A stretch of DNA of 64,000 nucleotides from an uncultured Actinomycetes bacterium. Its GTDB lineage: Bacteria; Actinomycetota; UBA4738; HRBIN12. The stretch spans positions 2,923-66,922 of the forward strand of contig CAZMNP010000074.1 in NCBI GenBank assembly GCA_964567675.1, read 5' to 3'. Positions 32,276-46,394 of this stretch are shown piece by piece. Every line of letters begins with the position of its first letter. Within the stretch, counting starts at the first letter, position 1. The notes under the pieces were generated by a model. It saw nothing but the letters and a program-made list of their open reading frames with translations. It did no database searches and was not told the DNA's origin. A program made the position numbers and the translations under genes.

Positions 32276-32947
32276 CTAGGCCGGTCCGTACCACGGCGGG
32301 GCCGTCCCGCCGGTCAGGATGTCCTTGCGCTTGCGCTCGGCGATGTCGAGCAGAGGCAGATGGACCGCCAGCCCGAACACCGAGCCGATCAGGAACATCC
32401 AGGAGTAGCGGTTCACGCTGCCGGAGTCGTGCCGCATGTACAGCTTGAGGAGCGGCCCACCGCCCGTGAAATACCCCTCCGCGGCGGCGAGCGACACGTC
32501 CTCGTCGGTCGCGAACTGGACGTTCTCGACGACGAAGTCCGTCGTTTGGAGGGCCAGGGGATCGTGTTCGGCGAGCCCAAGGTCCTCGTTCGCTCGCTCG
32601 GCGAGGAGCGCCTGCGCCGAGGACGTCACCGCCTGGATCGACGAGGTGTCGTTGTCGTTCTCGCCGGGCTCACGCCAGCCCTCCCCGTCGGGGTAGCGGT
32701 CGAACACCTCGTAGACGGGCTCCGGATCGGTGCCCGCCGCCTCGATGACCCAGGCCGGCTCGGCCCCGCGGGGGCCGAGGTTCACGGGCGTCTGGATCCC
32801 CTGGGAGTAGAACCCGAACGTCCAGATCGCCGAGAGCAGGATCATCCAGCCGAAGAAGGAGACGGCGAGGACGAGGTACCCCATCCGACGGCCGAAAACG
32901 AACGAGAGCATTAGCAGCACGCTGCCGACGAACAGGACGAACGCCAT
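32276..32947 (-). CDS. membrane protein, possible accessory subunit of the cytochrome bc complex
   Basis: I chose the ATG at 32947 (MAFVLFVGSVLLMLSFVFGRRMGYLVLAVSFFGWMILLSAIW..). It has two N-terminal TM helices, an acidic soluble domain and a C-terminal TM helix. It is the last long gene in the operon, after cytochrome c. Confidence 0.5.
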   Translation of the reverse strand: MAFVLFVGSVLLMLSFVFGRRMGYLVLAVSFFGWMILLSAIWTFGFYSQGIQTPVNLGPRGAEPAWVIEAAGTDPEPVYEVFDRYPDGEGWREPGENDNDTSSIQAVTSSAQALLAERANEDLGLAEHDPLALQTTDFVVENVQFATDEDVSLAAAEGYFTGGGPLLKLYMRHDSGSVNRYSWMFLIGSVFGLAVHLPLLDIAERKRKDILTGGTAPPWYGPA

Positions 32948-33015
32948 GATCGTGGTGAGCCCGCCCTTGAGCAGGGTCTCGCAGGGGATCTCGAATCCGA
33001 CGCATGACTGGGCGA

Positions 33016-33756
33016 TCACAGTTCCACGTTGTCCGTCGGGTTGGGCTTGTCCGTGATGACGCCGTTCAGGTAGTCCTCGACGGCCTTCGTCTGCGCTTCC
33101 GGGTTCAGGCAGACGTTCTCGCCGAAGGGGACCTCGTCCTCGTTCTGGATGCTGACGAGGTAGGTCACGATGTCGTTGATCTGCTGGTCGTTGAGGGCGC
33201 CCTCGAACCGGATGCTCCAGGACGGCATGATCCCCCGGCCCTGTTCGATGGTGGTGTAGATGTCCTTCAGGCTGTAGATCAGCGGGTGCCCGTGGAACGG
33301 GCCGCCGCAGACGGTCGTCAGGTTCGGCGTGATGATCGGCGTCAGGGTGGTGGGATTCAGGATGCGGCCGCCCTCGAGCGTCGGGCCGTGGCACTGCACG
33401 CATCCGACACCGCCCTGGTTCTCCTCGGTGAACAGCTCGACCGCCAGGCTGCCGCGGTGGATCGCGTCCGTCTTGAGGTCGCGTTCCTGCGCGAGGTTCG
33501 TGCCGGGCTCGAGGAGCCACGTCGCGGGGACCCACACGACCAAGAAGACGACGAGCAGGACGCCCCAGCCCTGCAGCTTCTGGAGCAGCGGCGTCTCGAG
33601 GTCCTCGTCCGAAGGTCCGGGGCGCATGCCCTGGGGGATGTCGGGTGCGGCCGCGCGGCGGCGGCCGCGGAGGAACAGGACGCTCCCGGCGATCGCGAGG
33701 AAGACCGCCCCTCCGATCGCGAGGATGATGCCCTGTGCCTGCGTGAGGGCGAGCAT
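33016..33756 (-). CDS. membrane-anchored monoheme cytochrome c
   Basis: There is a single CxxCH (GVGCVQCH), a Met ligand region (GIMPSW) and two N-terminal TM helices. Confidence 0.8.
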   Translation of the reverse strand: MLALTQAQGIILAIGGAVFLAIAGSVLFLRGRRRAAAPDIPQGMRPGPSDEDLETPLLQKLQGWGVLLVVFLVVWVPATWLLEPGTNLAQERDLKTDAIHRGSLAVELFTEENQGGVGCVQCHGPTLEGGRILNPTTLTPIITPNLTTVCGGPFHGHPLIYSLKDIYTTIEQGRGIMPSWSIRFEGALNDQQINDIVTYLVSIQNEDEVPFGENVCLNPEAQTKAVEDYLNGVITDKPNPTDNVEL

Positions 33757-33775
33757 CAGATCGCGAGCACTTCTC

Positions 33776-34510
33776 TCATCCCGTCGCCACGCAGAACGGC
33801 CCCGATTGTGGCCGGCGAAGGGTGTCCGCGCCCCGCGGCGGGCCGAGGATCACCTCGGCCGTGTCAACGAGGACGTCACCCGTTTCGGAGACGGAGACAC
33901 GGAACCGGTCCATGCCTCGCGGCGCGGGGCCGAGCTTGTACTCGCCCGCGGTGTTGTACTTCGATCCGTGACAGGGGCATTCGAACCACTGCGACTGCTG
34001 GCAGAAGGGGACCCGGCACCCCAGATGCACGCACCGCTGGTACAGGGGCATGATCCCTTGCGCGGAGAGGCCCTCGGCTTCGTAGTCGATGTCGTCCGAT
34101 GGCCGGCCGTTATACGCGATGATGTAGAACCGGCCGGTCCCCGAGTACACCGGTTGCTCCGTCTCGCTGATCGCGGCCTTGATCTCCTCCACCTTCCCCG
34201 CGTTGATCAGGGAACCGAAACCGCCCTTCAGGTTCGGCCAGAGGAAGGCGAGGGTCGCGCCTCCGAACTGCGCGCCGTAGACGAGGAGCGATCCCACGAG
34301 CGACCGGCGGAAGAACTCGCGCCGGCTGACCGGCTTCGCGGTCTTCGGCGGCGGTTGGCCGAATGCGTGGGCGGTCTCTCGAGCCTCCGCCTCTCGCTGC
34401 TCGCGCCGCGCTCGCCGGAACGAGAGACCGAAGACGATCGCGAACAGGTCCAGGACGACGATCACGACGATCGCCGCGATCGTGCCGCTCGACAGGGCCA
34501 GGACCGGCAT
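33776..34510 (-). CDS. Rieske [2Fe-2S] iron-sulfur subunit
   Basis: The Rieske boxes are present (CVHLGC and CPCHGS). I chose the ATG at 34510, which overlaps the upstream stop (ATGA). The listed ORF extends into junk. Confidence 0.85.
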
Positions 34511-35427
34511 CACAGCTCGAAGAACACCCCTTGTGCCCACGGCCAGACCCAGTTGTAGCCGGTGCCGCGGAAGAAGGACCCGATGATCGTCAGGGTCGCG
34601 CCGAACATCATCAGCATGGTGAACATGGTCATCGCGAGCTTTCGGTCGCCCGGCTTCGTGCTCGGGTTCCGGTCGACGAACGGGACGACGGCGAGCGCGA
34701 GCAGGACGATCGTCGGTGCGAAGAGCACCCCGGCCACCATCGGGTGGAAGTAGCGAAGGAGCTCCTGAAGGCCGAGGAAGTACCAAGGAGCCTTCGAGGG
34801 GTTCGGTGTCAGGTTCGGGTTCGCCAGCTCGCGGAGCGGCGCGTTCACGAACGTCGAGAAGATCACGAGGCCCACGGTCACGATGAGCATCGCGACGAAC
34901 TCCTCGATCAGCAGGTGCGGCCACACGTTCACGCGGTCGCCCTGTTCGCGTTCGACGCGCTGGATGCCCTCAGGCGGAACGAGCGCGAGGAGCCGGTGCT
35001 TTTCCTCGACCCCTTTCTTCGGCTCCGGCACGTTCCCCGTCGGCGCCGGAGCCTGCCGCGCCGGCGCCAACGTCGTCCCCGCCGGTGCGGCAACCGCCGC
35101 GGCTACCGGCGCCGGTGTGGCCGCAGGCGCCGGAGCGGCCGCAGGTGCAGGAGCGGAGGTCGCGGCCGGCGCCGGGGGCTGTGCGGCGCCCGAAGCCGCT
35201 CCGCCGTCTCCCGCCGTCGCCGCACCCTCCCCCGGCGTGGCCGCGGCCGGAGCGGGGGCGGCGGCCGGAGCAGCCGCCGGAGCTTCACCGTGCGCAGCCC
35301 GGTACGCCTGCACCGCCGCCCGCCGCGCGCGACCCTCCGCCACGCGGCGGTCGGTGCCCTTCGCGAGCTCCTCGGCCAGGACCCTGTCGAAGGTCTCCTG
35401 GTCGAGTTGCGCTTCCTCGCGAGCCAA
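34510..35427 (-). CDS. cytochrome b C-terminal half (subunit-IV/PetD-like) with ~150-aa Ala/Pro-rich N-terminal extension
   Basis: The C-terminal 150 aa resemble PetD ([23 protein letters not shown]). The N-terminal 150 aa are a low-complexity A/P tract. A TTG start is preceded by a GAGGAGGAA RBS. Confidence 0.7.
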
Positions 35428-35451
35428 CGTTCCTCCTCTTCGAGCGGTCCC

Positions 35452-36222
35452 TTACAGCGGCCCCGAGATCCCGCCGTCCTTGCGGATCCTCCAGAAGTGC
35501 ACGGAGAGGAATATCACCAGGACGAACGGCAACGCGAGAACGTGGAGCGTGTACCAACGAAGCAACGTGTCCGGGCCGACCACCACCCCGCCGAGCAGAA
35601 GGAAGTTCGCCTGTTTCGCGATGAGGGGGGAGTACCCGGCGAGCGACGTGCCGACCGTGACGGCCCAGATCGCGAGCTGGTCCCACGGCAGCAGGTACCC
35701 GGTGAACGAGAGTCCGAGCGTGAGGAACAGCAGGACCACGCCGACCACCCAGTTGAACTCACGCGGCGGCTTGTACGAGCCGGTGTAGAAGACCCGCGCC
35801 ATGTGGAGCGTGACGCTGAAGACCATGAGGTGAGCGCCCCACCGGTGCAGGTTGCGGACGAGGTCGCCGAAGAACACCGAGGTCCGGATGTTCTGCATGT
35901 CGGTGTAGGCCGAGGCCGCGCCGAGCTCGGCGGCCGGGCGGTAGAAGAACATCAAGAAGATGCCCGTGACGGTGAGCAGGATGAACAGGAAGAACGACAG
36001 GCCGCCCAGGCAGAACGTATAGGTCAGCTTCAGTCCGTGCCGCTTCAGCTTCACGGGGTGCAGGTGGTACAGCACGTTGTTCATCGTCGCGAGCGCCCGG
36101 TCGCGCGAGGTGTCCTTGTAGCCTCTTCGGAAGATCGAGCCGGGCCGGAACATCGACTTCCAGACCTCGGAGTCGCGGACGCGATCCATCACCTCGCTCG
36201 GCGAGGGCGGTTTGAGCTTCAC
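35452..36222 (-). CDS. cytochrome b6-type (N-terminal half of cytochrome b)
   Basis: Four TM helices with the heme-ligand His residues are present ([16 protein letters not shown] ... [24 protein letters not shown]). A GTG start with a GGAAGGA RBS is used. An internal ATG at 36189 is an alternative start. Confidence 0.85.
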
Positions 36223-36241
36223 CCCGTCCTTCCCCCTCGTC

Positions 36242-36640
36242 CTAGCCTTCGTCGGCCCGCTGCGTCTCGGGAACCGAGGCCATCGTGCGGCGGCCGCCCG
36301 AGCCTTCGGGCAGCCGGGCGTAGTACAGCGTGTCGGTGGGGCATCGCTCCACGCAAACGGAGCAGCGGGTGCAGGCGTTGTCGTCGACCACGAAGACCGA
36401 GTAGGACTCGGAGATCTCGGCCTCGACGGCCTCCTCTGTCGCGTCCCGCACGATCGTGGGGGCCATCATGAAGATGCAGTTCCACGGGCAGACGTCCTCG
36501 CACGCCCGGCACAGGATGCAGTTATCGGGATCGAGCATCAGGTGCTTGGGCGAGCGGACGCCCTTCGCGAGCCACGACGGGTCGACGGGCTCCACGACGT
36601 AGTCCGTGTGGATGTCGACCTCGGTCTTCGTGAACGGCAC
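36242..36640 (-). CDS. 2x[4Fe-4S] ferredoxin-type protein
   Basis: Two CxxCxxCxxxCP motifs are present ([12 protein letters not shown] and [12 protein letters not shown]). A GTG start is preceded by a GGAAGG RBS. Confidence 0.75.
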
Positions 36641-36663
36641 GGGCGGACCTTCCTATCCGTTCC

Positions 36664-37026
36664 TCATCGATAGCCGCCGGTCGGGCGCTCGGCCGAGGCC
36701 CCACGGAGCTTCCGCCGCCAGTTCTGAACGATCACGCCGGCGACGACCACCGTGAAGAAGGGTCCCGTCGAGAGCCCCGCGGCGACGGCGTCGCGCGCGA
36801 GCGGCCGCCAGTCCGACGTCCCTGACAGGCCGTCCCAACCCAGCTTCTGCTCGGCGAAGTACAACCAGAACGAGGGGATGACCGCCATCGAGATGACGCT
36901 GAAGAAGGCAAGTCCCAGGGAGAACGCAACTGCGGTGGTCCAGGACCACTCGAAATCCCTGAGGAAACGCTCGGCTCGCTCCTTCTGCTTGGCGTACTGC
37001 CGAAGGAGCCTCTCCGGGACCTTCAT
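36664..37026 (-). CDS. small membrane protein (120 aa)
   Basis: I chose the ATG at 37026 (MKVPERLLRQYAKQKERAERFLRDFEWSW..). Two TM helices are predicted. It is the first gene of the minus-strand operon. Confidence 0.45.
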   Translation of the reverse strand: MKVPERLLRQYAKQKERAERFLRDFEWSWTTAVAFSLGLAFFSVISMAVIPSFWLYFAEQKLGWDGLSGTSDWRPLARDAVAAGLSTGPFFTVVVAGVIVQNWRRKLRGASAERPTGGYR

Positions 37027-37243
37027 CCGACAGCCATCCCCACGCGGATCGCGCTTCCCCCGATCGTCGGTCGCCCTCGCGGCCGGCTGATTATAGACAT
37101 CGGCCCTTCCGCCACCCGGCGATGCGCCGGCCCCGCGGTGTCGCTGCCACCGCTCGTGAAAAGCTTCACAAGCACGCCTCACTATGGCAAGGATCGGCCG
37201 AGAGGTGCAACCGCATCCCCCCGGGATCGCACCTCACCCGGCG

Positions 37244-38005
37244 ATGCGCATCCCTTCCTACACTGGCCGCGTGATCGCCGACTTCGTGCAGGAGGGCCTC
37301 GGAGCCTGGTGGGCGCCCGCGCTCGCTTTCGCCGCCGGCCTGGTCTCGTTCGCCTCCCCTTGTGTGTTCCCGCTCGTGCCGGGCTATCTGTCCTTCGTCA
37401 CGGGCGAGGCGCGCGACGAACGGCGGCCGGTCGTGCCGATCCTGCTGTTCATCGCGGGTTTCGCCGCCGTGTTCACGGCCCTCGGGGCGTTCACGGGATC
37501 GGTGACCCGGATCCTGCGCTCGCCTGCGGGCATCCGGATCTCGGGCGGGATCATCATCGCGTTCGGAGTCCTGATGGTGCTGTATGCCCTGCGCGTCGGG
37601 TCGCCGGCGCTGTTCGCGGAACGCCGCCCGCTGCTCCAGCGGGTCCGGCCCGGACCGGCGTGGGCCTTCCCGCTCGGCGTCGCGTTCGGCGCCGGGTGGA
37701 CGCCGTGCATCGGACCGGTGCTCGCGGGTGTGCTCGGCATCGCGGCTGCCCAGGGGGGGTCGTTCCGCGGTGCGGTGCTCCTGTTCGTGTACTCGGCCGG
37801 GTTGGGGCTCCCGTTCCTGTTGGTCGGCGTGGGCGTGCGGCGACTCATGGGGGCGCTCGCGTTCGTCCGGCGCAACTACCACTGGATCGCGGGCGGCTCG
37901 GGCGTGGTCATGATCGCGATCGGAGTGCTCGTCGCGACGAACCAGTGGACGCTGCTGCTCGGGCCAGTCCTTCGCGCGATCCGGCAATTCGAGCCTCCGC
38001 TCTGA
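37244..38005 (+). CDS. ccdA: cytochrome c biogenesis protein CcdA (DsbD family)
   Basis: The CxxC motif lies in TM1 (SFASPCVFPLVPGY). Six TM helices are predicted. I chose the ATG at 37244. Confidence 0.8.
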   Translation: MRIPSYTGRVIADFVQEGLGAWWAPALAFAAGLVSFASPCVFPLVPGYLSFVTGEARDERRPVVPILLFIAGFAAVFTALGAFTGSVTRILRSPAGIRISGGIIIAFGVLMVLYALRVGSPALFAERRPLLQRVRPGPAWAFPLGVAFGAGWTPCIGPVLAGVLGIAAAQGGSFRGAVLLFVYSAGLGLPFLLVGVGVRRLMGALAFVRRNYHWIAGGSGVVMIAIGVLVATNQWTLLLGPVLRAIRQFEPPL

Positions 38006-38048
38006 GCGTGTCGGTCCGCTCCAGCGCCGAGCGTGGGTACTTTCAAGG

Positions 38049-39218
38049 ATGCTAGAGTGCGCCGGGTTCGGTGCCCGCCGAACGTCCGCGCGAGGGGAAA
38101 CGGGGAAGGTGCGCAGGAAGACGCAGTCGGCCCTCGGCCTAATTACCCTGGTCGCCGTCGCTGCCGCATGCGCTCCGAACGCCACGCAGTCTGCGCTCGA
38201 ACCCGCTGGACCGTACGCCGAGAAGGGCTACGACCTGTTCGTCCCGGTCTTCTGGGTTGCCGCGGCTGTCTTCTTCATCGTCGAGGGCGCCCTCGTGCTT
38301 TTCGTGATCCGCTACCGGCATCGCAAGGGCCGCGAGGGCATCCCGCCGCAGGTCCACGGCAACACGCGTCTTGAGATCGCGTGGACGATCCTTCCGGCCG
38401 TGATCCTCGCGGGCGTCTCGGTGCCGACCGTCGCGGGGATCTTCGAGCTCGCCCGGGACCCCGGGCCCCAGGCACTCGCCGTGCGGGTCCTCGGGCACCA
38501 GTGGTGGTGGGAGTTCGACTATCCCGAACAGCGGATCATCACGGCGAACGAGCTGCACATCCCCACCGGCCGGCCCGTCTATCTCACGTTGTGCGCGGTC
38601 GGCGTCGGGTACGGCGGCGTGCCGACCCCCAGCGAGTGCCAGCCCGGGCCTCCGGAGGGCGCCCCGCCGGCAACGCTCGGCGACGCGGTGATCCACTCCT
38701 TCTGGCCGCCCGAGCTTGCCGGAACCCAGGACGTGATCCCGGGGCGGGCGAACACCATGGTGCTCCAGGCCGACGAGCCGGGTACCTACGAGGGCCAGTG
38801 CAAGGAGTTCTGCGGCCTCTCGCATGCGTACATGCGATTCACGGTCGTCGCCCACACGCCGCAGGACTTCGAACGATGGGTGGCCGATCAACAGGCGCCC
38901 GCGCCGCAGTTCGAACCGGGCAGCGCCGCCGCGGCAGGGGCGGAGACGTTCATCCAAACGTGCGTTGCCTGTCACTCGGTCGACGGCCTGCAGGATGCGG
39001 AGGGAGTGCTCATCCCGGGGTCGAACAACGCCCCGAACCTCACGCACTTCGCGAGCAGCGAGTGCTTCGCCGGCTGCATCTTCGAGAACGACGACGAGAA
39101 TCTGCGACGATGGCTCAACGATCCTCCGGCGATGAAACCCGGATCGTTGATGCCGAACTACGGCTTGACGCCCGAGCAGATCGAACAGCTGATCGCGTAC
39201 CTGAGCACGCTGGAGTGA
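38049..39218 (+). CDS. ctaC: cytochrome c oxidase subunit II fused to a C-terminal cytochrome c domain (caa3-type)
   Basis: The CuA site is present (HSFWPPELAG...CKEFCGLSHAYM), with a C-terminal CVACH heme c motif. A lipoprotein-like signal is present (LVAVAAACAP). The start is uncertain between the ATG at 38049 and the GTG at 38111. Confidence 0.85.
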   Translation: MLECAGFGARRTSARGETGKVRRKTQSALGLITLVAVAAACAPNATQSALEPAGPYAEKGYDLFVPVFWVAAAVFFIVEGALVLFVIRYRHRKGREGIPPQVHGNTRLEIAWTILPAVILAGVSVPTVAGIFELARDPGPQALAVRVLGHQWWWEFDYPEQRIITANELHIPTGRPVYLTLCAVGVGYGGVPTPSECQPGPPEGAPPATLGDAVIHSFWPPELAGTQDVIPGRANTMVLQADEPGTYEGQCKEFCGLSHAYMRFTVVAHTPQDFERWVADQQAPAPQFEPGSAAAAGAETFIQTCVACHSVDGLQDAEGVLIPGSNNAPNLTHFASSECFAGCIFENDDENLRRWLNDPPAMKPGSLMPNYGLTPEQIEQLIAYLSTLE

Positions 39219-39233
39219 GGTGAAGAAGGAGCG

Positions 39234-41114
39234 ATGGCGAGCGTGAGCGTCCCGGCCGAGCGGCCTCGCGGCCTATTGAGCCGGCCCACCGCGACGACGG
39301 GATTCTGGAGCTGGTTCACGACGGTGGACCACAAGAAGATCGGGATCCTGTACGGCATCACGGCTTTCATGTTCTTCATCGTCGGTGGGATCGAGGCCCT
39401 GCTGATCCGGCTCCAGCTCGCAGGGCCCGACCAGGACATCCTGTCGGCGAGCGTCTACAACGAGATCTTCACGATGCACGGCATCACGATGGTGTTCCTG
39501 GTGGTCATGCCGCTGTCGGCCGCGTTCTTCAACTACCTGATCCCTCTGATGATCGGAGCCCGCGACGTCGCGTTCCCGCGGCTGAACGCGTACAGCTACT
39601 GGGCGTTCCTGTTCGGCGGGCTGTTCATCTACTCGAGCTGGTTCCTCGGCGGCGCTCCGAACGGCGGGTGGTTCGGTTACCCGCCGAACTCGAGTCTCGA
39701 CCCGACGCTCGGGATGACCTTCTACTCGCTCGGGTTGCTGATCACCGGCATCGCGTCCACGGTCTCCGCGGTCAACCTCGCCGTCACGATCATCAACATG
39801 CGCGCGCCGGGGATGACGCTGTTCCGGATGCCCGTCTTCATCTGGATGGGCTTGGTCGTCCAGCTGCTCCTGGCCTTCTCGCTGCCGATCATCACGATCG
39901 GGCTGACCGAGTTGTTCTTCGATCGCCGATTCGGGACCCACTTCTTCGATCCGGCAGCGGGCGGCGACCCGGTGCTGTGGCAGCACCTGTTCTGGCTGTT
40001 CGGGCACCCCGAGGTGTACATCCTGGTCCTGCCGGCGATGGGGATCGTGTCGGAGATCCTGCCGGTCTTCGCTCGCAAGCCGCTGTTCGGCTACCAGTTC
40101 GTGGTCTTCAGCGGCATGGCGATCGGGTTCATCGGCTTCGGCGTCTGGGCGCACCACATGTTCGCCGTGGGGCTCGGGCCGGTCGCCAACACCGCGTTCG
40201 GCATCTCCACGATGATCATCGCGGTCCCGACGGGCGTGAAGATCTTCAACTGGCTCGGGACGCTCTGGAGGGGCGACATCCGGTTCACGACGCCGATGCT
40301 GTTCTCGATTGGATTCATCGCGATGTTCGTGATCGGCGGGCTCTCGGGAGTCACGCACGCGGTCGTGCCGTCGGACTACCAGCAGACGGACACGTATTAC
40401 ATCGTCGCGCACTTCCATTACGTGCTGTTCGGCGGCGCGATCTTCGGGCTTTTCGGCGGCATCTACTACTGGTGGCCGAAGGTCTTCGGCCGGATGCTGG
40501 GTGAGGGGCTCGGCAAGCTGAACTTCTGGCTCATGCTGATCGGGTTCAACCTGGCCTTTGGGCCGATGCACATCCTCGGTCTCCAGGGGATGCCGAGACG
40601 GATCCAGAGCTATCCCGAGTCGCTCGGCCTCACCTTCTGGAACCTCGTGTCGTCGGTCGGCGCGTTCCTGATCGCGGTCGGCGTGCTGATCTTCCTCGTG
40701 AACGCCGTGGCGAGCTTCCGCAAGCCGAAGGAGATGGAGGCCGATCCGTGGGACGCGCGGACCCTCGAGTGGCTCACGACGTCGCCGCCTCCCGAGTACA
40801 ACTTCGACGAGGTGCCCGTCGTCCACTCCCTCGACGAGCTGTGGCATCGGAAGTACTCGCAGACGCAGGGCGGCCGCGTCGTGCCCGTTCCGGCGGGCGG
40901 CTCCGGCGAGGCGCACGGCGACCCGCACGGCGGTGGACACGGGAGTGGACACGGGATCCACCTACCGGGCCCGTCCTACTTCCCGCTGATCGCGGCGCTC
41001 GGTCTGCCGATCGCGGCCTACGGGCTCATCTTCAACTGGTGGCTCGTCGGCGCCGGGATCGTCCTGGTGCTTGCCGGGTTCTACGGCTGGATCCTGGAAC
41101 CCTCGGCGGAGTGA
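39234..41114 (+). CDS. ctaD: cytochrome c oxidase subunit I with C-terminal extra TM helix
   Basis: The protein has the canonical CoxI helices and His ligands (WFFGHPEVY, HHMF). An AAGGAG RBS precedes the ATG. A C-terminal Gly/His-rich loop is followed by an additional TM helix. Confidence 0.9.
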   Translation: MASVSVPAERPRGLLSRPTATTGFWSWFTTVDHKKIGILYGITAFMFFIVGGIEALLIRLQLAGPDQDILSASVYNEIFTMHGITMVFLVVMPLSAAFFNYLIPLMIGARDVAFPRLNAYSYWAFLFGGLFIYSSWFLGGAPNGGWFGYPPNSSLDPTLGMTFYSLGLLITGIASTVSAVNLAVTIINMRAPGMTLFRMPVFIWMGLVVQLLLAFSLPIITIGLTELFFDRRFGTHFFDPAAGGDPVLWQHLFWLFGHPEVYILVLPAMGIVSEILPVFARKPLFGYQFVVFSGMAIGFIGFGVWAHHMFAVGLGPVANTAFGISTMIIAVPTGVKIFNWLGTLWRGDIRFTTPMLFSIGFIAMFVIGGLSGVTHAVVPSDYQQTDTYYIVAHFHYVLFGGAIFGLFGGIYYWWPKVFGRMLGEGLGKLNFWLMLIGFNLAFGPMHILGLQGMPRRIQSYPESLGLTFWNLVSSVGAFLIAVGVLIFLVNAVASFRKPKEMEADPWDARTLEWLTTSPPPEYNFDEVPVVHSLDELWHRKYSQTQGGRVVPVPAGGSGEAHGDPHGGGHGSGHGIHLPGPSYFPLIAALGLPIAAYGLIFNWWLVGAGIVLVLAGFYGWILEPSAE

Positions 41115-41121
41115 TGTCCTG

Positions 41122-41745
41122 ATGGCGAGCGACGCGATGGAGGTCCATGCCTACGAGAGCGAGCACCTGGCGACGAGCACGGGCTTGCCGAACCTCAAGC
41201 TCGCGATGTGGCTCTTCCTCGCCTCGGACTGCCTGCTGTTCGGGGCGCTGATCTCGACGTACGTGCTCTACCGGGGTGCGAGCGTGGTCGGGCCCTATCC
41301 GAACGACGTCTTCGACATCCCGTACACGTCGGTCTCCTCCTTCGTGCTCCTCGCGAGCTCGCTCACGATGGTGCTCGCCCTCGCGGCGCTGCAGCGCGGC
41401 GACCTCGGCCGGTCGCGGGTATGGCTGCTCGCGACGGCGTTGCTGGGTATGACGTTCGTCGGCGGCCAGGTCTACGAGTTCACGACGTTCGCCGAGGAGG
41501 GACTCGTGCTCACGACGAACGTCTTCAGCACGAGCTTCTACGTGCTGACCGGGTTCCACGGGACGCACGTCGCGATCGGGATCTTGATGCTGTTGACGCT
41601 CCTCACGTTCTCGTTCGCCGGCCGGCTCGGGCCTGAGAAGGCGGAGACCGTCGAGCTCGTGGGCCTGTACTGGCACTTCGTCGACATCGTGTGGATCGTG
41701 ATCTTCACCGTCGTCTATCTGATCCCCACGGGGAACCCGGCATGA
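41122..41745 (+). CDS. ctaE: cytochrome c oxidase subunit III
   Basis: The protein matches the CoxIII family (LTGFHGTHVAIG, WHFVDIVW). I chose the ATG at 41122. Confidence 0.85.
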   Translation: MASDAMEVHAYESEHLATSTGLPNLKLAMWLFLASDCLLFGALISTYVLYRGASVVGPYPNDVFDIPYTSVSSFVLLASSLTMVLALAALQRGDLGRSRVWLLATALLGMTFVGGQVYEFTTFAEEGLVLTTNVFSTSFYVLTGFHGTHVAIGILMLLTLLTFSFAGRLGPEKAETVELVGLYWHFVDIVWIVIFTVVYLIPTGNPA

Positions 41746-42101
41746 GCGAGGCGGAGCGCTCGACCGAGCTCGCCCCGCAGGCCGAGGCCACGACGGGATC
41801 GCACCAGGGGTCCGGTCACGTCGCGCGCCACCCGAGCCCGAAGGAGTACGTCCGGATCGCGATCATCCTCGCGATCATCACCGCGGCCGAGGTCGCCATC
41901 TACTACATCGAGGCGATCGAGGGCCTGCTGATCCCACTCCTGTTCCTGTTCGCGCTGATCAAGTTCACGCTCGTCGTGCTCTGGTTCATGCACCTCAAGT
42001 TCGACAGCCGGACCTACGCGCGGTTCTTCATGATGGGCCTCGCGGGTGCGATCACCCTGTTCCTCATCGTGCTGCTCACGTTCCGGGTCTTCGTGGGGTA
42101 G
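41742..42101 (+). CDS. ctaF: cytochrome c oxidase subunit IV (prokaryotic caa3 type)
   Basis: The PF03626-like pattern is present (HPSPKEYVRIAIILAIITAAEVAIYY). The ATG overlaps the ctaE stop (ATGA). Confidence 0.7.
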   Translation: MSEAERSTELAPQAEATTGSHQGSGHVARHPSPKEYVRIAIILAIITAAEVAIYYIEAIEGLLIPLLFLFALIKFTLVVLWFMHLKFDSRTYARFFMMGLAGAITLFLIVLLTFRVFVG

Positions 42102-42104
42102 CCG

Positions 42105-42935
42105 ATGCCCACCTGGCACGCTCATCCCGACGTCTGGCTCCTCCTCGGAGGGGTGTGGGTGGCGTATCTCCTCGCCGTTCGCCGGCACCGATCGACGGCG
42201 CCGGAGGCCGGCCGAAGCGAGCGCCGGAAGCGCACGACGCTGTTCACCTTCGGGATGGGGCTGCTGTGGTTCGCCTCGGAATGGCCGATGCACGACCTGG
42301 CCGAGGGATACCTGTACTCGGCGCACATGGTCCAGCACATGGTCTACACGCTGGTCGCCGCGCCGCTGCTCGTGGCGGGGATCCCGGCCTGGATGTGGCG
42401 CGCGATCCTGCGGCCGCGGCCCCTCGGGCGCCTCTTCGGGTTCGCGACCCGGCCCGTCGTTGCACTGATCATCTTCAACGGAGTGCTCCTGTTCACGCAC
42501 TGGCCCGAGGTGGTCGAGGCATCCGTGGGGTCGGAGCTGCTCCATCTCTCGCTGCACGTGCTGATCGTTTGCTCGGCCGTCGTGATGTGGTGGCCGGTCA
42601 TGTCACCGCTCCCGGAGCGTCCGGCCCTCCCGCCGCCGGGGCAGCTGATGTACCTGTTCCTCCAGTCGCTCGCGCCGACGATCCCGGCGTCGTTCCTCAC
42701 GTTCGGGACGACGCTGCTGTACCCGGTGTACGGAACGTTCCCCCGGATCTGGGGGATCCCGGCGATCACCGACCAGCTGGTCGCCGGCCTGATCATGAAG
42801 ATCGGCGGCGGGTTGATCCTGTGGGGCTTCATCGTGGTCATCTTCTTCAACTGGCATGCGAAGGAGCGGGACGGGTGGGACGCCCTCGCGCTCCGCGGGG
42901 TCGAGCGGGACGTCCGGGCGGGGCTCGCGAAGTGA
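42105..42935 (+). CDS. ctaG: cytochrome c oxidase assembly factor CtaG (Caa3_CtaG family)
   Basis: A multi-TM protein with the conserved HMVQHMV motif. Confidence 0.7.
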   Translation: MPTWHAHPDVWLLLGGVWVAYLLAVRRHRSTAPEAGRSERRKRTTLFTFGMGLLWFASEWPMHDLAEGYLYSAHMVQHMVYTLVAAPLLVAGIPAWMWRAILRPRPLGRLFGFATRPVVALIIFNGVLLFTHWPEVVEASVGSELLHLSLHVLIVCSAVVMWWPVMSPLPERPALPPPGQLMYLFLQSLAPTIPASFLTFGTTLLYPVYGTFPRIWGIPAITDQLVAGLIMKIGGGLILWGFIVVIFFNWHAKERDGWDALALRGVERDVRAGLAK

Positions 42936-42964
42936 GGCCGAGATGAGGCCAAGGTGAGGTCAAG

Positions 42965-43957
42965 GTGAAGAAGGACGTCCGCGACCGGCTGCTCCTTCCG
43001 CTCCTGCTGCCGGTCGGCATCCTCCTGTTCATCGCGCTGATGCTCTGGGGGTTCTCGAGGATCCTGCTCGGTCTCACCGCGACGACCGCGACGGTCACAG
43101 CCGTCGTCGCGGCGCTCGGCGTCATGGTGATCGCCGCCATCGCGGCCGGCCGGACGACGGTCCGCGCCTCCACGATCGCCGCGATGTTCGCCGCCACGGC
43201 GGGCATCGCGATGCTGGCCGGCGGGATCGCCCTCGCCTTCGTCGCCGGCGGGGATGAGGGCGAAGAGCCGGGTCCGCCCGACGAGGGTGTCCCCGTCGTC
43301 GAGCTCGTCGCCCAGGACATCGCCTTCAACCCGACCGACCTGACGGTGCCGGCCGACGTGCCGTTCGAGATCGCGTTCGACAACCGCGACGCCGGGGTGC
43401 AGCACAACGTCTCGATCTACGACAACCCGGAGTTCAGCGGTACGCCGCTGCTCGAAGGCGAGCTCGTGACCGGTCCGACGCAGACGACCTATCGCGTCGA
43501 CCCCTTGTCGCCGGGTCCGTATTCGTTCCTGTGCGTCGTGCACCCCACGATGACCGGACAGATCGAAGCCGTCGAGGGCGAGGGTCCCGGAGGCGGTGAC
43601 GAGGAACCGGGAGGCGAGGAACCGGGAGGCGAGGAACCGGGCGGCGAGGAACCGGGCGGCGGTGAGGAGCCGGGAGACGGCCTCACGGTGGTGGCGCAGA
43701 ACCTCGCGTTCGACACGCAGACCCTCGACCTGCCGCCCGAGGCGGTCGCGACGATCACGTTCGACAACCGGGACGCGGGAACGCCGCACAACATCTCGAT
43801 CTACTCCGACGAAAGCCTCGGTGAGCTCCTCTTCCAAGGCGAGCTCGTCACGGGTCCCGCCACGATCCCGTATGAGGTCGGGCCGTTCCCGGCGGGCGAG
43901 TACTACTTCCATTGCGACGTGCACCCCAACATGAACGGGACGGTGAGGGTCGGCTGA
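42965..43957 (+). CDS. membrane-anchored tandem-cupredoxin protein (two type-1 copper sites)
   Basis: Two N-terminal TM helices are followed by two cupredoxin domains, each with H...C..H...M ligands (HNVSIY...FLCVVHPTMTG and HNISIY...YFHCDVHPNMNG). A (GEEPG)n linker joins them. A GTG start is preceded by an AAGGTGAGG RBS. Confidence 0.7.
   Translation: MKKDVRDRLLLPLLLPVGILLFIALMLWGFSRILLGLTATTATVTAVVAALGVMVIAAIAAGRTTVRASTIAAMFAATAGIAMLAGGIALAFVAGGDEGEEPGPPDEGVPVVELVAQDIAFNPTDLTVPADVPFEIAFDNRDAGVQHNVSIYDNPEFSGTPLLEGELVTGPTQTTYRVDPLSPGPYSFLCVVHPTMTGQIEAVEGEGPGGGDEEPGGEEPGGEEPGGEEPGGGEEPGDGLTVVAQNLAFDTQTLDLPPEAVATITFDNRDAGTPHNISIYSDESLGELLFQGELVTGPATIPYEVGPFPAGEYYFHCDVHPNMNGTVRVG
43601..43660 (+). 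repeat. 15-bp tandem coding repeat x4 (gaggaaccgggaggc), encoding a (EEPGG)n linker
   Basis: The direct tandem repeat can be read in the DNA inside the cupredoxin gene. Confidence 0.8.
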
Positions 43958-43994
43958 CGGCCCCGCTCACCGCCGGCAGCGAGTGGATGTCGTG

Positions 43995-44492
43995 ATGAAA
44001 CGCGTGGCCGTGCTCCTGCTGTTGACGGCGTGTGCTTCTCCCGCGGTGGTTCCCGGCGCGGCGGTGCAGGAGGTCTCCGGCAGGATGCCCGCGCTCGAGG
44101 GTGCCGCCCTCGCCGGTGGGACGCTGACGTCCTCGGACTACGCGGGGCGCGTCGTGGTCGTGAACTTCTGGGCCACGTCGTGCGCTCCCTGCAGAGACGA
44201 GCAGCCGATCCTGTCCGCCGCGCAGTCGCGAGCCGGCGACGACGGCCCGTTCTTCATCGGCGTCAACCATCGGGAGGGCGAGGACGCGGCTCGGGCGTAC
44301 CTGGATGAGTTCGATGTGCGGTACCCCAGCCTCGGGGATCAGGCGGGCGACATCGCATACCGGTTCGGTGTGCCGTTCCTGCCGACCACGGTCGTGATCG
44401 ACGCCGACGGCCGGCTCCGCTACCGGATCGCCGGGGCGATCGACGAAGAGACGCTCGCCGACCTGCTCTCGAGGGTGACCGCCGGCGAGTGA
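43995..44492 (+). CDS. TlpA/ResA-like thiol-disulfide oxidoreductase lipoprotein
   Basis: A lipobox is present (LLLTACAS), with a thioredoxin CxxC (WATSCAPC). I chose the ATG at 43995. Confidence 0.75.
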   Translation: MKRVAVLLLLTACASPAVVPGAAVQEVSGRMPALEGAALAGGTLTSSDYAGRVVVVNFWATSCAPCRDEQPILSAAQSRAGDDGPFFIGVNHREGEDAARAYLDEFDVRYPSLGDQAGDIAYRFGVPFLPTTVVIDADGRLRYRIAGAIDEETLADLLSRVTAGE

Positions 44493-44496
44493 GCGC

Positions 44497-46320
44497 TCAG
44501 GCGAGCGCCGCGAACGGCGATGCCGCGTCGACGGCGACCGCGGCGAAAAGCAGCCCGAGGTAGACGATCGAGAAGCGGAACAGGCGCATCGAGTCCGCCT
44601 TGGACGCACCCAGCCAGAGCCGAAGCGCTCGCCAGACGAACCAGCCACCGAGCACGAGCGCGGCGACCGCGTAGACCGGCCCCATGTCGCCGAAGGGCAC
44701 CAGCAGGAGCGACGTCCCGAACAGCACGAGGGAATACAGCAGGATCTGCTTGCGTGTCTCCTCCGGCCCTCGCACCACGGGAAGCATCGGGATGCCGGCC
44801 GCCGCGTAGTCGTCGCGGTAGCGCATCGCGAGCGCCCAGAAATGCGGCGGCGTCCAGACGAACACGATCGCGAACAGGATCCACGCGGGTACCCCGACCG
44901 TCCCGGTCACGGCGGCCCACCCGACGAGCGCGGGAGCGGCACCCGCGGCGCCCCCGATGACGATGTTCTGGACGCTCGTGCGCTTTAGCCACATCGTGTA
45001 GACGAAGACGTAGAAGGCGATCGCCGCGAGGGCGAGGCTCGCCGCCAGCACGTTGACGACGATCGAGAGGAACAGGAACGCGGCGGCCCCCAGGACGTAC
45101 CCGAAGGCGAGCGCGTTCTCCGGGGCGATCCGCTGTGCCGGGAGCGGACGCCGGCGTGTCCGCCGCATCACCTCGTCCACGTCGCGATCGAGGTAGCAGT
45201 TGATCGCGTTCGCCGAGCCCGCGGCGACGGCGCCGCCGCCAACGGTCGCCAGGATCAACAGGATGGAGGGCAGGCCGCGCTCGGCGAGCATCATCGCCGG
45301 CACGGTCGTGATCAACAGCAGGACGATGATCCGCGGCTTCGTGAGTTGGAAGTACGCGGCCGTCGTCTCGCGGAGCGAGGTGCGCTTGCCGTTCCTCCGG
45401 GCGTCCACGTCCGAGTGCGCGTGTCCGCCCCGGCGGGTTTCGTTGCGTGCGGCGACCCAGAGTGCGACCAGCGTCGCCCAGATCGCGGCCGACAGGGCCA
45501 CGTGGGCGGTCACCGCCGCGGGCTGCAGGCGGGACCAGACGTTTGCGGCACCGACGAGGATCTGCGCGACGATCAGTGCCAGCGCGACCAGGGACAGGAT
45601 CGAGAGCGGCCGGTTCCGCGGCCGGGTCCAAGCCCGGATGAACACGAAGAGCACCAGCAGGGCTGCCGCTGCGGCCAGGACACGATGGGCGAACATCCAG
45701 GTGGCGGCCCCACCGAGCGCCGGCACGAGGCGTCCGTCCATGAGCGGCCAGTCGCGGAAGGCCAGGCCCGAGCCGGTCGCCCGGACGTACGTGCCGATGA
45801 CCAGCGCGCCGAACGTCACGAGCGCGGTCCAACCGGCCAGCGCGACGAAACCGTCACCGGGCGAGGGCCGTTCGCGTCGGCGGCCGCGACCGAACGCATA
45901 GAGCGCCTCCGCGGCGTTCGCCACGACGACGGCGACGAGCGCCATCGCGAACGCGAAGTGGACGGTCACCCAGGCCGGGTCGAGATCGGTCTGCACCACG
46001 ATGCCTCCGAGCACCGCCTGCATGAGCACGAGGGGGACGGCGGCGACGGACAACCGGAAGATCGTCCGCTGCTCCTTGTGCCGGCGCCACGCCTCGACGG
46101 CCATCCACGCGATCAGGACGACGAGGACGAACGCGACGAACCGGTGCGAATACTCGATCCAGGACTTAGCCGTCGGGTAGGGGAGCCAGCGGTCCGGCCC
46201 GCACTTGGGCCAGCTGGTGCAGCCGAGGCCCGACTCGGTCGCCCGGACGAGCCCGCCCACGCCGAACAGGAGGACGGTCGTCGAGGCGGTCGCGATCGCG
46301 AGCTTCTGGAAGCGCGTCAT
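44497..46320 (-). CDS. ctaAB: fused heme A synthase (CtaA, N-terminal) and protoheme IX farnesyltransferase (CtaB/CyoE, C-terminal)
   Basis: The N-terminal 320 aa carry the paired Cys in loop 1 (CTSWPKC) and the His-containing helices of CtaA. The C-terminal 290 aa have UbiA-family motifs ([26 protein letters not shown]). I chose the ATG at 46320. Confidence 0.8.
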
Positions 46321-46394
46321 GCGAAAGGGTGGTTTGCGTTCGCGGGAACGATAGCAGCCGCCGCGACGACGCATCGTCTTGCGATACTCACGGC

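Follow-up and report, generated by a model that had tools for sequence, protein, structure and literature searches.

A tandem cupredoxin gene behind the caa3 oxidase genes

The window analyzed here is a stretch of 64,000 nucleotides (nt) from an uncultured Actinomycetes bacterium (contig CAZMNP010000074.1 of assembly GCA_964567675.1). At positions 42965..43957 on the forward (+) strand it contains a gene for a membrane-anchored tandem cupredoxin of 330 amino acids (aa), which is designated Cup. The gene lies directly downstream of the caa3 oxidase genes ctaCDEFG. A gene at this place had been proposed in an earlier sequence-only reading of the window, and it proved to be real. The open reading frame (ORF) shows a G+C content at third codon positions (GC3) of 0.90, which is of the coding type (the G+C content of the window is 69%), and its product has two matches to Pfam PF13473 as well as full-length homologues. 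The start codon is GTG, preceded by a Shine-Dalgarno-like GAGG motif 5 nt upstream, and the stop codon is at 43955-43957. In an alignment of 27 sequences, the N-terminus of Cup matches those of its homologues end to end (MKKDVRDR/MRKDVRDR). Because this match is residue for residue, the start call is sound.

The spacer between ctaG and cup (42933-42968, +) is filled by a tandem repeat of an 11-nt unit in 3.3 copies, TGAGGCCAAGA, which yields repeated GAGG Shine-Dalgarno-like motifs. Most relatives have overlapping stop and start codons instead. A scan of 36600-44700 for promoters and terminators found none between genes, and the scores were no better than those of shuffled sequences.

Cup carries two cupredoxin domains. 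The membrane-proximal domain 1 spans residues 111-203 (43295..43573, +) with the loop CVVHPTM, and is supported by a Pfam stretch at residues 106-200, a predicted local distance difference test (pLDDT) score of ~90 and invariant ligands. The distal domain 2 spans residues 240-330 (43682..43954, +) with the loop CDVHPNM, and is supported by a PF00127 match over residues 244-329, the alignment with amicyanin and the fold model. Cupredoxin_1 (PF13473) matched Cup in two stretches with an E-value of 1.7e-21 and 76.6 bits against a cutoff of 27, and Copper-bind (PF00127) matched with 30.4 bits against a cutoff of 21.2. The type-1 ligands of domain 1 are H147 (codon at 43403-43405, +), C190 (43532-43534), H193 (43541-43543) and M196 (43550-43552). 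Those of domain 2 are H275 (43787-43789, +), C317 (43913-43915), H320 (43922-43924) and M323 (43931-43933). All eight are invariant among the 27 aligned homologues, and the C..H..M motif was found in each domain of 147 full-length relatives. Only two His residues per domain are conserved in the 27 sequences, and both are type-1 ligands. Both domains are ~93 residues long. Their C-x2-H-x2-M loop has the length of that in amicyanin, and the first His ligand is within an HN motif.

The structure models agree with this assignment. In the full-length AlphaFold2 (AF2) model, built with the 27-sequence alignment as input, residues 111-203 and 240-329 form beta-sandwiches, each with a pLDDT of ~90. 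Domain 2 folded by itself reached a pLDDT of 96.4. A Foldseek search of the PDB with domain 2 indicated similarity to amicyanin (TM-score 0.73, root-mean-square deviation (rmsd) 3.0 A, 26-28% identity) and to auracyanin (TMq 0.81-0.85), followed by a Cupredoxin_1 protein of Bacillus anthracis, plastocyanin and rusticyanin. The best match by sequence in the PDB was also amicyanin (E-value 1e-5), with the ligands aligned to His53/Cys92/His95/Met98. Thus, the Pfam matches, the invariant ligands and the models support both domains being bona fide single-domain type-1 cupredoxins, and it is likely from the ligand pattern that both would bind copper. The sequence-only reading had assigned a full H..C..H..M set to each domain, and the Pfam search and the predicted fold, two of the checks that it suggested, agree with this.

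The similarity to amicyanin has limits. The NCBIfam equivalog model for amicyanin (TIGR02657) scored Cup at 35.8 bits, far under the cutoff of 110.2 bits. The copper site of Cup is therefore amicyanin-like, but Cup is not an amicyanin. Amicyanin of Paracoccus and Methylobacterium shares with the Cup domains the loop length, the HN at the first His and the size (about 95-105 residues), and it is the best match in both sequence and structure. It is, however, a soluble single-domain protein that serves methylamine dehydrogenase and is encoded in the mau cluster, whereas Cup is a transmembrane (TM)-anchored tandem encoded in a caa3 operon.

With the whole model as the query, Foldseek ranked two-domain laccases and the nitrite reductase NirK first in the PDB (E-values 1e-9 to 1e-11), which would make Cup a small two-domain multicopper oxidase or a nitrite-reductase-like enzyme. 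Those alignments have an rmsd of 14-19 A and a TM-score of about 0.23, and reflect merely the presence of two consecutive cupredoxin domains. The Cup domains are minimal (about 93 aa) and separated by a disordered linker of 36 residues. Each offers only its two type-1 His residues, the HxH motifs that a type-2/type-3 cluster would need are missing, and the number of domains varies between two and three in the family. We regard such an enzyme as extremely improbable. A two-domain laccase or NirK identity was ruled out, as the type-2/type-3 ligands are absent and the matches are an artefact of the tandem; folding domain 2 alone resolved the matter. The top structural matches of domain 2 are all single-domain electron carriers, and this supports a carrier function in the models.

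The N-terminal anchor comprises residues 1-96 (42965..43252, +). The sequence-only reading had placed two TM helices here. There are three instead, predicted at residues 3-34, 39-61 and 68-95 in the AF2 model, and the hydropathy profile has three maxima. The charges fit the same anchor: the N-terminus (KK.R.R) and the loop at residues 62-69 (GRTTVRAS) are both basic, in agreement with the positive-inside rule. Cup is thus predicted to have its N-terminus inside and its C-terminus outside the cell, with the acidic linker and both copper domains extracytoplasmic. The count matters, since export needs an odd number of helices and two helices would leave the domains in the cytoplasm. In the predicted topology, the copper domains and, in the oxidase subunit CtaC, the CuA and cytochrome c domains face the same side of the membrane. 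The description of Cup as a membrane-tethered blue-copper protein is consistent with the cupredoxin fold models, the amicyanin and auracyanin matches and this outward topology.

Two acidic linkers separate the structured parts. Linker 1 (residues 97-110, DEGEEPGPPDEGVP; 43253..43294, +) contains six D/E and no K/R residues and is predicted to be disordered, with pLDDT below 50 across residues 86-106. Linker 2 (residues 204-239; 43574..43681, +) is rich in Gly and Pro and contains (EEPGG)4, encoded by a tandem repeat of a 15-nt unit in 4.1 copies at 43600-43661 (Tandem Repeats Finder). The (EEPGG)n linker noticed in the sequence-only reading is therefore real. Linker 2 is also predicted to be disordered (pLDDT below 50 for residues 207-237), and it differs in length and sequence between homologues in the 27-sequence alignment.

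Membrane anchors with no special role are usually poorly conserved. In Cup, 41 positions within residues 1-96 are invariant in the 27 aligned sequences, and the motifs RDR..LP.LLP.GI and LWGFSR.LLG are strongly conserved. The mean identity of 146 homologues to the window protein is 0.53-0.64 in the anchor and 0.50-0.66 in the redox domains. As the anchor is conserved as strongly as the redox domains, a specific intramembrane partner is suggested, and the anchor may dock to a membrane complex. A search with residues 1-100 for the anchor in other contexts returned three proteins, all fragments or frameshifted copies of the cup gene in the same caa3 locus, and thus no independent occurrence; this word-based search is probably insensitive to hydrophobic sequence. 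In one long-read contig of a metagenome-assembled genome (MAG; L083, 7386-8988), the cupredoxin gene is broken into three ORFs for the anchor and each of two domains, most likely by frameshift assembly errors and not by a natural gene split.

The strong conservation of the anchor also suggests a permanent subunit. Cup could then be a non-redox structural or stabilizing subunit of the oxidase, or a copper-buffering or resistance protein similar to CopI, in which the copper sites are mainly protective or stabilizing. AcoP, a cupredoxin of Acidithiobacillus ferrooxidans, was first described as keeping the oxidase activity optimal while bound to the enzyme (PMC4059628). Every type-1 ligand of Cup is, however, kept in two or three domains throughout the family, indicating that redox-active copper is the selected feature, and long disordered tethers suit mobile domains better than a rigid structural role. 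No copper-resistance genes were found nearby. These possibilities are considered distinctly improbable.

Relatives of Cup and the ctaG-cup junction

A search of a collection of 5.8 billion proteins yielded 919 relatives of Cup. All are metagenomic or MAG proteins, labelled "plastocyanin" or [quoted passage not shown]. Relatives were present in 312 genomes in a scan of one genome per GTDB species, and the best 80 of these are all MAGs. A further search for homologues started from L056, the most divergent locus; it found no cultured host and returned metagenomic and MAG proteins only. In a search with a hidden Markov model (HMM) against 1.84 billion representatives clustered at 50% identity, 226 clusters matched at E <= 1e-30.

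The relatives fall into two length classes, of about 320 aa and of about 420-450 aa. The long class has three cupredoxin domains, with a full ligand set in each. The proximal domain (D1) forms a separate orthologous class common to the two- and three-domain proteins. In the three-domain forms, the identity between D2 and D3 is 0.60, against 0.46 between D1 and D2, and the third domain is a duplicate of the distal type. These comparisons indicate the family architecture anchor-D1-(D2)n, in which the proximal and distal identities have been kept distinct. Such position-specific classes fit a division of labor between proximal and distal domains. Longer relatives, of 575-660 aa, also appear in the profile search and match the profile in as many as four stretches: P0225 (636 aa), P0232, P0237, P0268 and P0271. 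They may be four-domain forms or members of a paralogous class that is linked to uvrA and uvrC.

Synteny was analyzed by tblastn of the window proteins against 82 fetched loci. Sixty-three of the loci contain a full-length homologue (anchor and domains) together with at least 900 nt of upstream DNA. In all 63, ctaG of a ctaCDEFG series is directly 5' of cup, at a distance of -4 to +62 nt; the stop and start codons of the two genes overlap in more than half. A thioredoxin gene is next in 49 of 59 loci, and ctaAB is within 1.5 kb in 56 of 59. The cluster adjoins a Rieske/cytochrome b (bc) operon and complex I genes in most loci, which is a standard aerobic chain. The three divergent loci retain the ctaG-cup junction without change, and in two of them the genes overlap by 4 nt. 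The ctaA and ctaB genes are separate and upstream in one of these (L085), and the bc and nuo genes are absent in another (L086); the ctaG-cup pair is kept in both. Since the pairing survives these rearrangements of the bc, heme A and nuo flanks, cup belongs to the oxidase operon and not to the bc or nuo neighborhood.

Co-occurrence with caa3 clusters in related genomes was proposed in the sequence-only reading as a check, and consistent occurrence outside respiratory loci as evidence against it. The linkage in 63 of 63 loci, which persists in divergent and rearranged ones, bears out the former, and within this sample the TM-anchored family was not found outside respiratory loci.

Many of these MAGs also encode a paralogue of another kind, whose gene is flanked by uvrA and uvrC in every case (L073, 8651-10666, +; also L066, L071, L075, L079 and L081). 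It is a lipoprotein of ~670 aa with the lipobox LALGAAAC, an N-terminal region of ~430 aa of no assigned family, and two C-terminal type-1 cupredoxins with the loops CVVHPTTM and CDVHPTM. It matches Cup only over residues about 111-329. It was set aside as counter-evidence to the respiratory linkage: it is a different protein and does not have the anchor, and so has no bearing on the TM-anchored family.

Respiratory genes around cup

The window holds a respiratory super-cluster. The caa3 oxidase genes occupy 38049..42935 (+) directly 5' of cup. They were identified by Pfam and by motifs in the translations, and are found in the same order in the 63 related loci. CtaC (38049-39218, +) is a COX2 protein with a C-terminal cytochrome c domain, and has the CuA motif CKEFCGLSHAYM and the heme motif CVACH. 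It is followed on the same strand by CtaD (39234-41114), CtaE (about 41137-41745, in an ORF from 41071), CtaF (about 41742-42101, in an ORF from 41691) and Caa3_CtaG (42105-42935). The C-terminus of CtaD (626 aa) matches the actinobacterial subunit IV family PF12270 at residues 577-622. A separate gene of the Bacillus type COX4_pro is present at 41691-42101, and with the match in CtaD there are in effect two "subunit IV" elements.

The first gene 5' of ctaC encodes a CcdA/DsbD_TM thiol-reductant transporter for cytochrome c maturation (37184..38005, +; PF02683), in a conserved position. On the other side, cup is followed by a gene for an extracytoplasmic thiol-disulfide oxidoreductase, a ResA/TlpA-like lipoprotein (43983..44492, +) with the lipobox LLLTAC and the active site WATSCAPC. 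It was identified by Pfam Redoxin/AhpC-TSA, and its NCBIfam ResA/DsbE/TlpA matches are below the cutoffs. The Pfam identities of these neighbors agree with the position given in the sequence-only reading, after ctaCDEFG and before a thiol-disulfide oxidoreductase. A convergent gene (44497..46374, -) encodes a fusion of heme A synthase and heme O synthase (CtaA-CtaB, 625 aa; Pfam COX15-CtaA and UbiA). The fusion is kept in most relatives, and L085 has separate genes.

The place of cup in this neighborhood would also fit a copper chaperone or assembly factor. In such a role, comparable to that of PCuAC, CtaK or Sco, the Cup domains would hold copper outside the cell and pass it to CuA of CtaC or, via CtaG, to CuB. 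The gene is between Caa3_CtaG, a putative CuB insertion factor, and the ResA/TlpA-like oxidoreductase, near ctaA-ctaB, and is often translationally coupled to ctaG. No Sco or PCuAC genes were found among the window ORFs, and CtaK was likewise not seen in the window. A cupredoxin-like fold is also present in PCuAC (PMC9145763). The ligands of Cup, however, constitute a classical buried His/Cys/His/Met electron-transfer site, unlike the exposed His/Met site H(M)x10Mx21HxM of PCuAC (PMC9145763). That motif is absent from Cup, which has no Pfam match to the Sco family or to the PCuAC family DUF461/PF04314, and no His/Met-rich tail. The two conserved His residues of each domain are both used as type-1 ligands, and the structural neighbors are electron carriers. 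Type-1 sites bind copper tightly and are not known as copper donors. Cytochrome c maturation explains the thioredoxin and CcdA genes, since the cluster also encodes ResB and ResC in two related loci (L002 and L084). A chaperone function is thus considered improbable.

The presumed electron source is a divergent operon for a Rieske/cytochrome b complex (32276..37020, -), which was identified by Pfam, motifs and ORFs and has the same genes in L001. Its cytochrome b is split. In the order of transcription, it encodes a small membrane protein of ~120 aa (about 36664-37020), a 2x[4Fe-4S] ferredoxin (36242-36640), a cytochrome b6-like protein (35452-36222), a subunit-IV-like protein (34510-35427), a Rieske protein (about 33776-34513), a TM-anchored monoheme cytochrome c with a single CXXCH (CVQCH; 33016-33756) and a membrane protein of ~248 aa (about 32276-33022), all on the - strand. 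The first and the last of these have no Pfam match and are also called in L001; they may be extra subunits. The ferredoxin-like gene is directly 5' of the cytochrome b6-like gene, a position that is kept in most related loci. An Fe-S subunit within a Rieske/b operon is unusual.

Downstream of the respiratory cluster there are genes for a polyprenyl synthase and a geranylgeranyl-reductase-like flavoprotein, and the nuo operon. The remaining genes of the window are unrelated housekeeping genes. Besides the cytochrome c of the bc operon and the cytochrome c domain of the oxidase, Cup is the sole further redox protein found at the locus.

Electrons could also reach Cup from elsewhere. The tethered cupredoxins would then collect them from a donor outside the cytoplasm, such as Fe(II) or a periplasmic dehydrogenase, and feed them to the caa3 oxidase, bypassing the bc complex in the manner of rusticyanin/AcoP or amicyanin. 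The fold and the loop of Cup are nearest to amicyanin, the acceptor of methylamine dehydrogenase, and rusticyanin and AcoP of iron oxidizers are encoded with an aa3 oxidase (PMC4059628; bioRxiv 10.1101/2020.03.01.968255). In divergent loci, moreover, cup stays with the oxidase though the bc operon is not adjacent. Most loci, however, adjoin the bc operon and complex I, and neither dehydrogenase, outer-membrane cytochrome nor mau-type genes were found in the window or in the conserved neighborhood. The low score against the amicyanin equivalog model is also unfavorable. Such an input appears quite unlikely.

A proposed tethered copper carrier to the caa3 oxidase

The caa3 oxidases of Bacillus and Thermus take electrons from a third carrier, and Gram-positive electron carriers are membrane-tethered. 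In Bacillus subtilis, the membrane-bound cytochromes c550/c551 are a tethered one-electron link from complex III to caa3. In the window, the cytochrome c of the bc operon is monoheme, and CtaC provides the oxidase with a further cytochrome c domain. Comparison with the caa3 systems of Bacillus and Thermus leads one to expect a third carrier here too, and its presence at this locus is plausible. We propose, at a probability slightly better than even, that Cup is an oxidase-associated type-1 copper electron-entry module, which would accept electrons from the monoheme cytochrome c encoded in the bc operon and deliver them to the cytochrome c domain of CtaC. The electron transfer, the redox role, the partners and the docking of the anchor are suggested by operon context and analogy.

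In this model, Cup would be a carrier on the extracytoplasmic side, tethered to the membrane, holding two type-1 ("blue") copper centers and made together with the caa3 oxidase. The three-helix anchor would probably bind the oxidase or a bc-caa3 supercomplex, and the two amicyanin-like domains would hang off the anchor via the flexible acidic Gly/Pro tethers. Electrons would pass from menaquinol through the Rieske/cytochrome b complex and the monoheme cytochrome c to the cupredoxin domain or domains, and from there through the cytochrome c domain of CtaC to CuA, heme a and heme a3/CuB. In this, Cup would correspond to the cytochromes c550/c551 of Bacillus and to sulfocyanin, halocyanin and auracyanin of other lineages.

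Several points weigh against this proposal. With ctaG on one side, the ResA/TlpA-like thioredoxin gene on the other and ctaAB close by, cup occupies the "assembly" end of the gene cluster, and its position alone suits an assembly factor equally well. Within a supercomplex, the bc cytochrome c could reduce the cytochrome c of CtaC without an intermediary, and a shuttle would then be dispensable. The homologues are all from uncultured organisms. Charge complementarity was not observed: acidic pI values (4.0-4.7) were obtained for the cupredoxin domains as well as for the two presumed partners, the cytochrome c domain of CtaC and the cytochrome c of the bc operon. As all presumed partners are acidic, the electrostatic comparison is uninformative.

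In a stronger form of the electron-entry proposal, the Rieske/b and caa3 complexes would form an obligate supercomplex with Cup as one of its stoichiometric subunits. Cultured relatives among Actinobacteria have a bridge formed by the dihaem cytochrome cc, QcrC. The anchor of Cup would be wedged between the two complexes, and its two or three tethered coppers would constitute a "copper wire" replacing the dihaem bridge. This form is considered unlikely.

The sequence-only reading described a di-cupredoxin shuttle as not a textbook respiratory component. That was overstated, because blue-copper partners of heme-copper oxidases are a well-established principle, exemplified by sulfocyanin and halocyanin (PMC3062577), a halocyanin fusion (PMC8305020) and AcoP (PMC4059628). 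In the SoxM supercomplex of Sulfolobus, sulfocyanin (SoxE) is the link from a complex analogous to bc1 to the oxidase (PMC3062577). Like Cup, it is a membrane-anchored blue-copper protein encoded with terminal oxidase genes, but it is archaeal and has only one domain and one anchor. Cup itself has no match to the sulfocyanin family PF06525 at E <= 0.01 in the Pfam search; some Cup homologues carry precomputed PF06525 matches of unstated strength. Halocyanin of Natronomonas is a membrane-tethered type-1 copper protein that donates electrons to the oxidase instead of cytochrome c (PMC3062577), and in haloarchaea it is also found fused to an oxidase subunit, CbaD (PMC8305020). Halocyanin thus shares with Cup the tether and the genetic tie to the oxidase. 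It differs in being archaeal and lipid-anchored and in having ba3/aa3 acceptors without a cytochrome c domain, whereas the oxidase associated with Cup keeps that domain.

Auracyanin, from the bacteria Chloroflexus and Roseiflexus, is a blue-copper carrier that is tethered to the membrane and works in an aerobic/photosynthetic chain. In addition to the structural match of domain 2, it shows a weak sequence match to domain 1 of Cup. Unlike Cup, it has a single larger domain (about 125-140 aa) and is not encoded in an oxidase operon. Its partner is Alternative Complex III and not a Rieske/b complex.

AcoP, whose gene is in the rus operon of Acidithiobacillus ferrooxidans together with that of rusticyanin, is a TM-anchored cupredoxin encoded with the aa3 oxidase genes; it binds the oxidase tightly and interacts with cytochrome c (PMC4059628; 10.1101/2020.03.01.968255). 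A gene named "cup" has been reported in cox operons of iron oxidizers (10.1101/2020.03.01.968255; PMC8239418). AcoP resembles Cup in being TM-anchored beside an oxidase. It differs in its single domain, single TM helix, unusually long ligand loop and green site, in its gene position before coxB, and in its role in acidophilic iron oxidation. Cup has the shortest type of loop (C-x2-H-x2-M) and three TM helices. No AcoP chain is among the PDB sequence matches to Cup at E <= 1, and no direct comparison was made.

With respect to the host type and the oxidase, the system of Bacillus subtilis is similar. It shares with the window a Gram-positive host, a Rieske/b6c-type complex with split b, a caa3 oxidase, a tethered carrier, and assembly genes including Caa3_CtaG and CcdA/ResA (PMC9145763). 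Its carriers c550/c551 are unlike Cup in having heme instead of copper, single domains, and genes outside the cta operon.

In the literature searched, neither Cup nor a cta operon encoding tandem type-1 cupredoxins was found to have been described. New are the tandem of two or three type-1 domains on disordered acidic tethers, the conserved three-helix anchor, the fixed place after ctaG, and the restriction to a large lineage of uncultured soil Actinomycetota. The soluble part of Cup is small (about 230 residues), and the central claim is therefore directly testable.

If the proposed role is correct, widespread uncultured soil Actinomycetota would wire their main aerobic chain via a tethered poly-cupredoxin and not via a c-type cytochrome. 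The group includes at least 312 species-level genomes and, at E <= 1e-30, 226 clusters of 50% identity. The architecture, a conserved three-TM docking module with two or three type-1 domains on disordered tethers, would then be a new one. The "copper wire" form, if true, would represent a previously unrecognized copper-based coupling of complexes III and IV in a large uncultured soil lineage. With the carrier role, Actinomycetota would join archaea, Chloroflexi and acidophilic iron oxidizers as organisms that pair blue-copper carriers with heme-copper oxidases, and aerobic respiration in the soil lineage would have one further requirement for copper.

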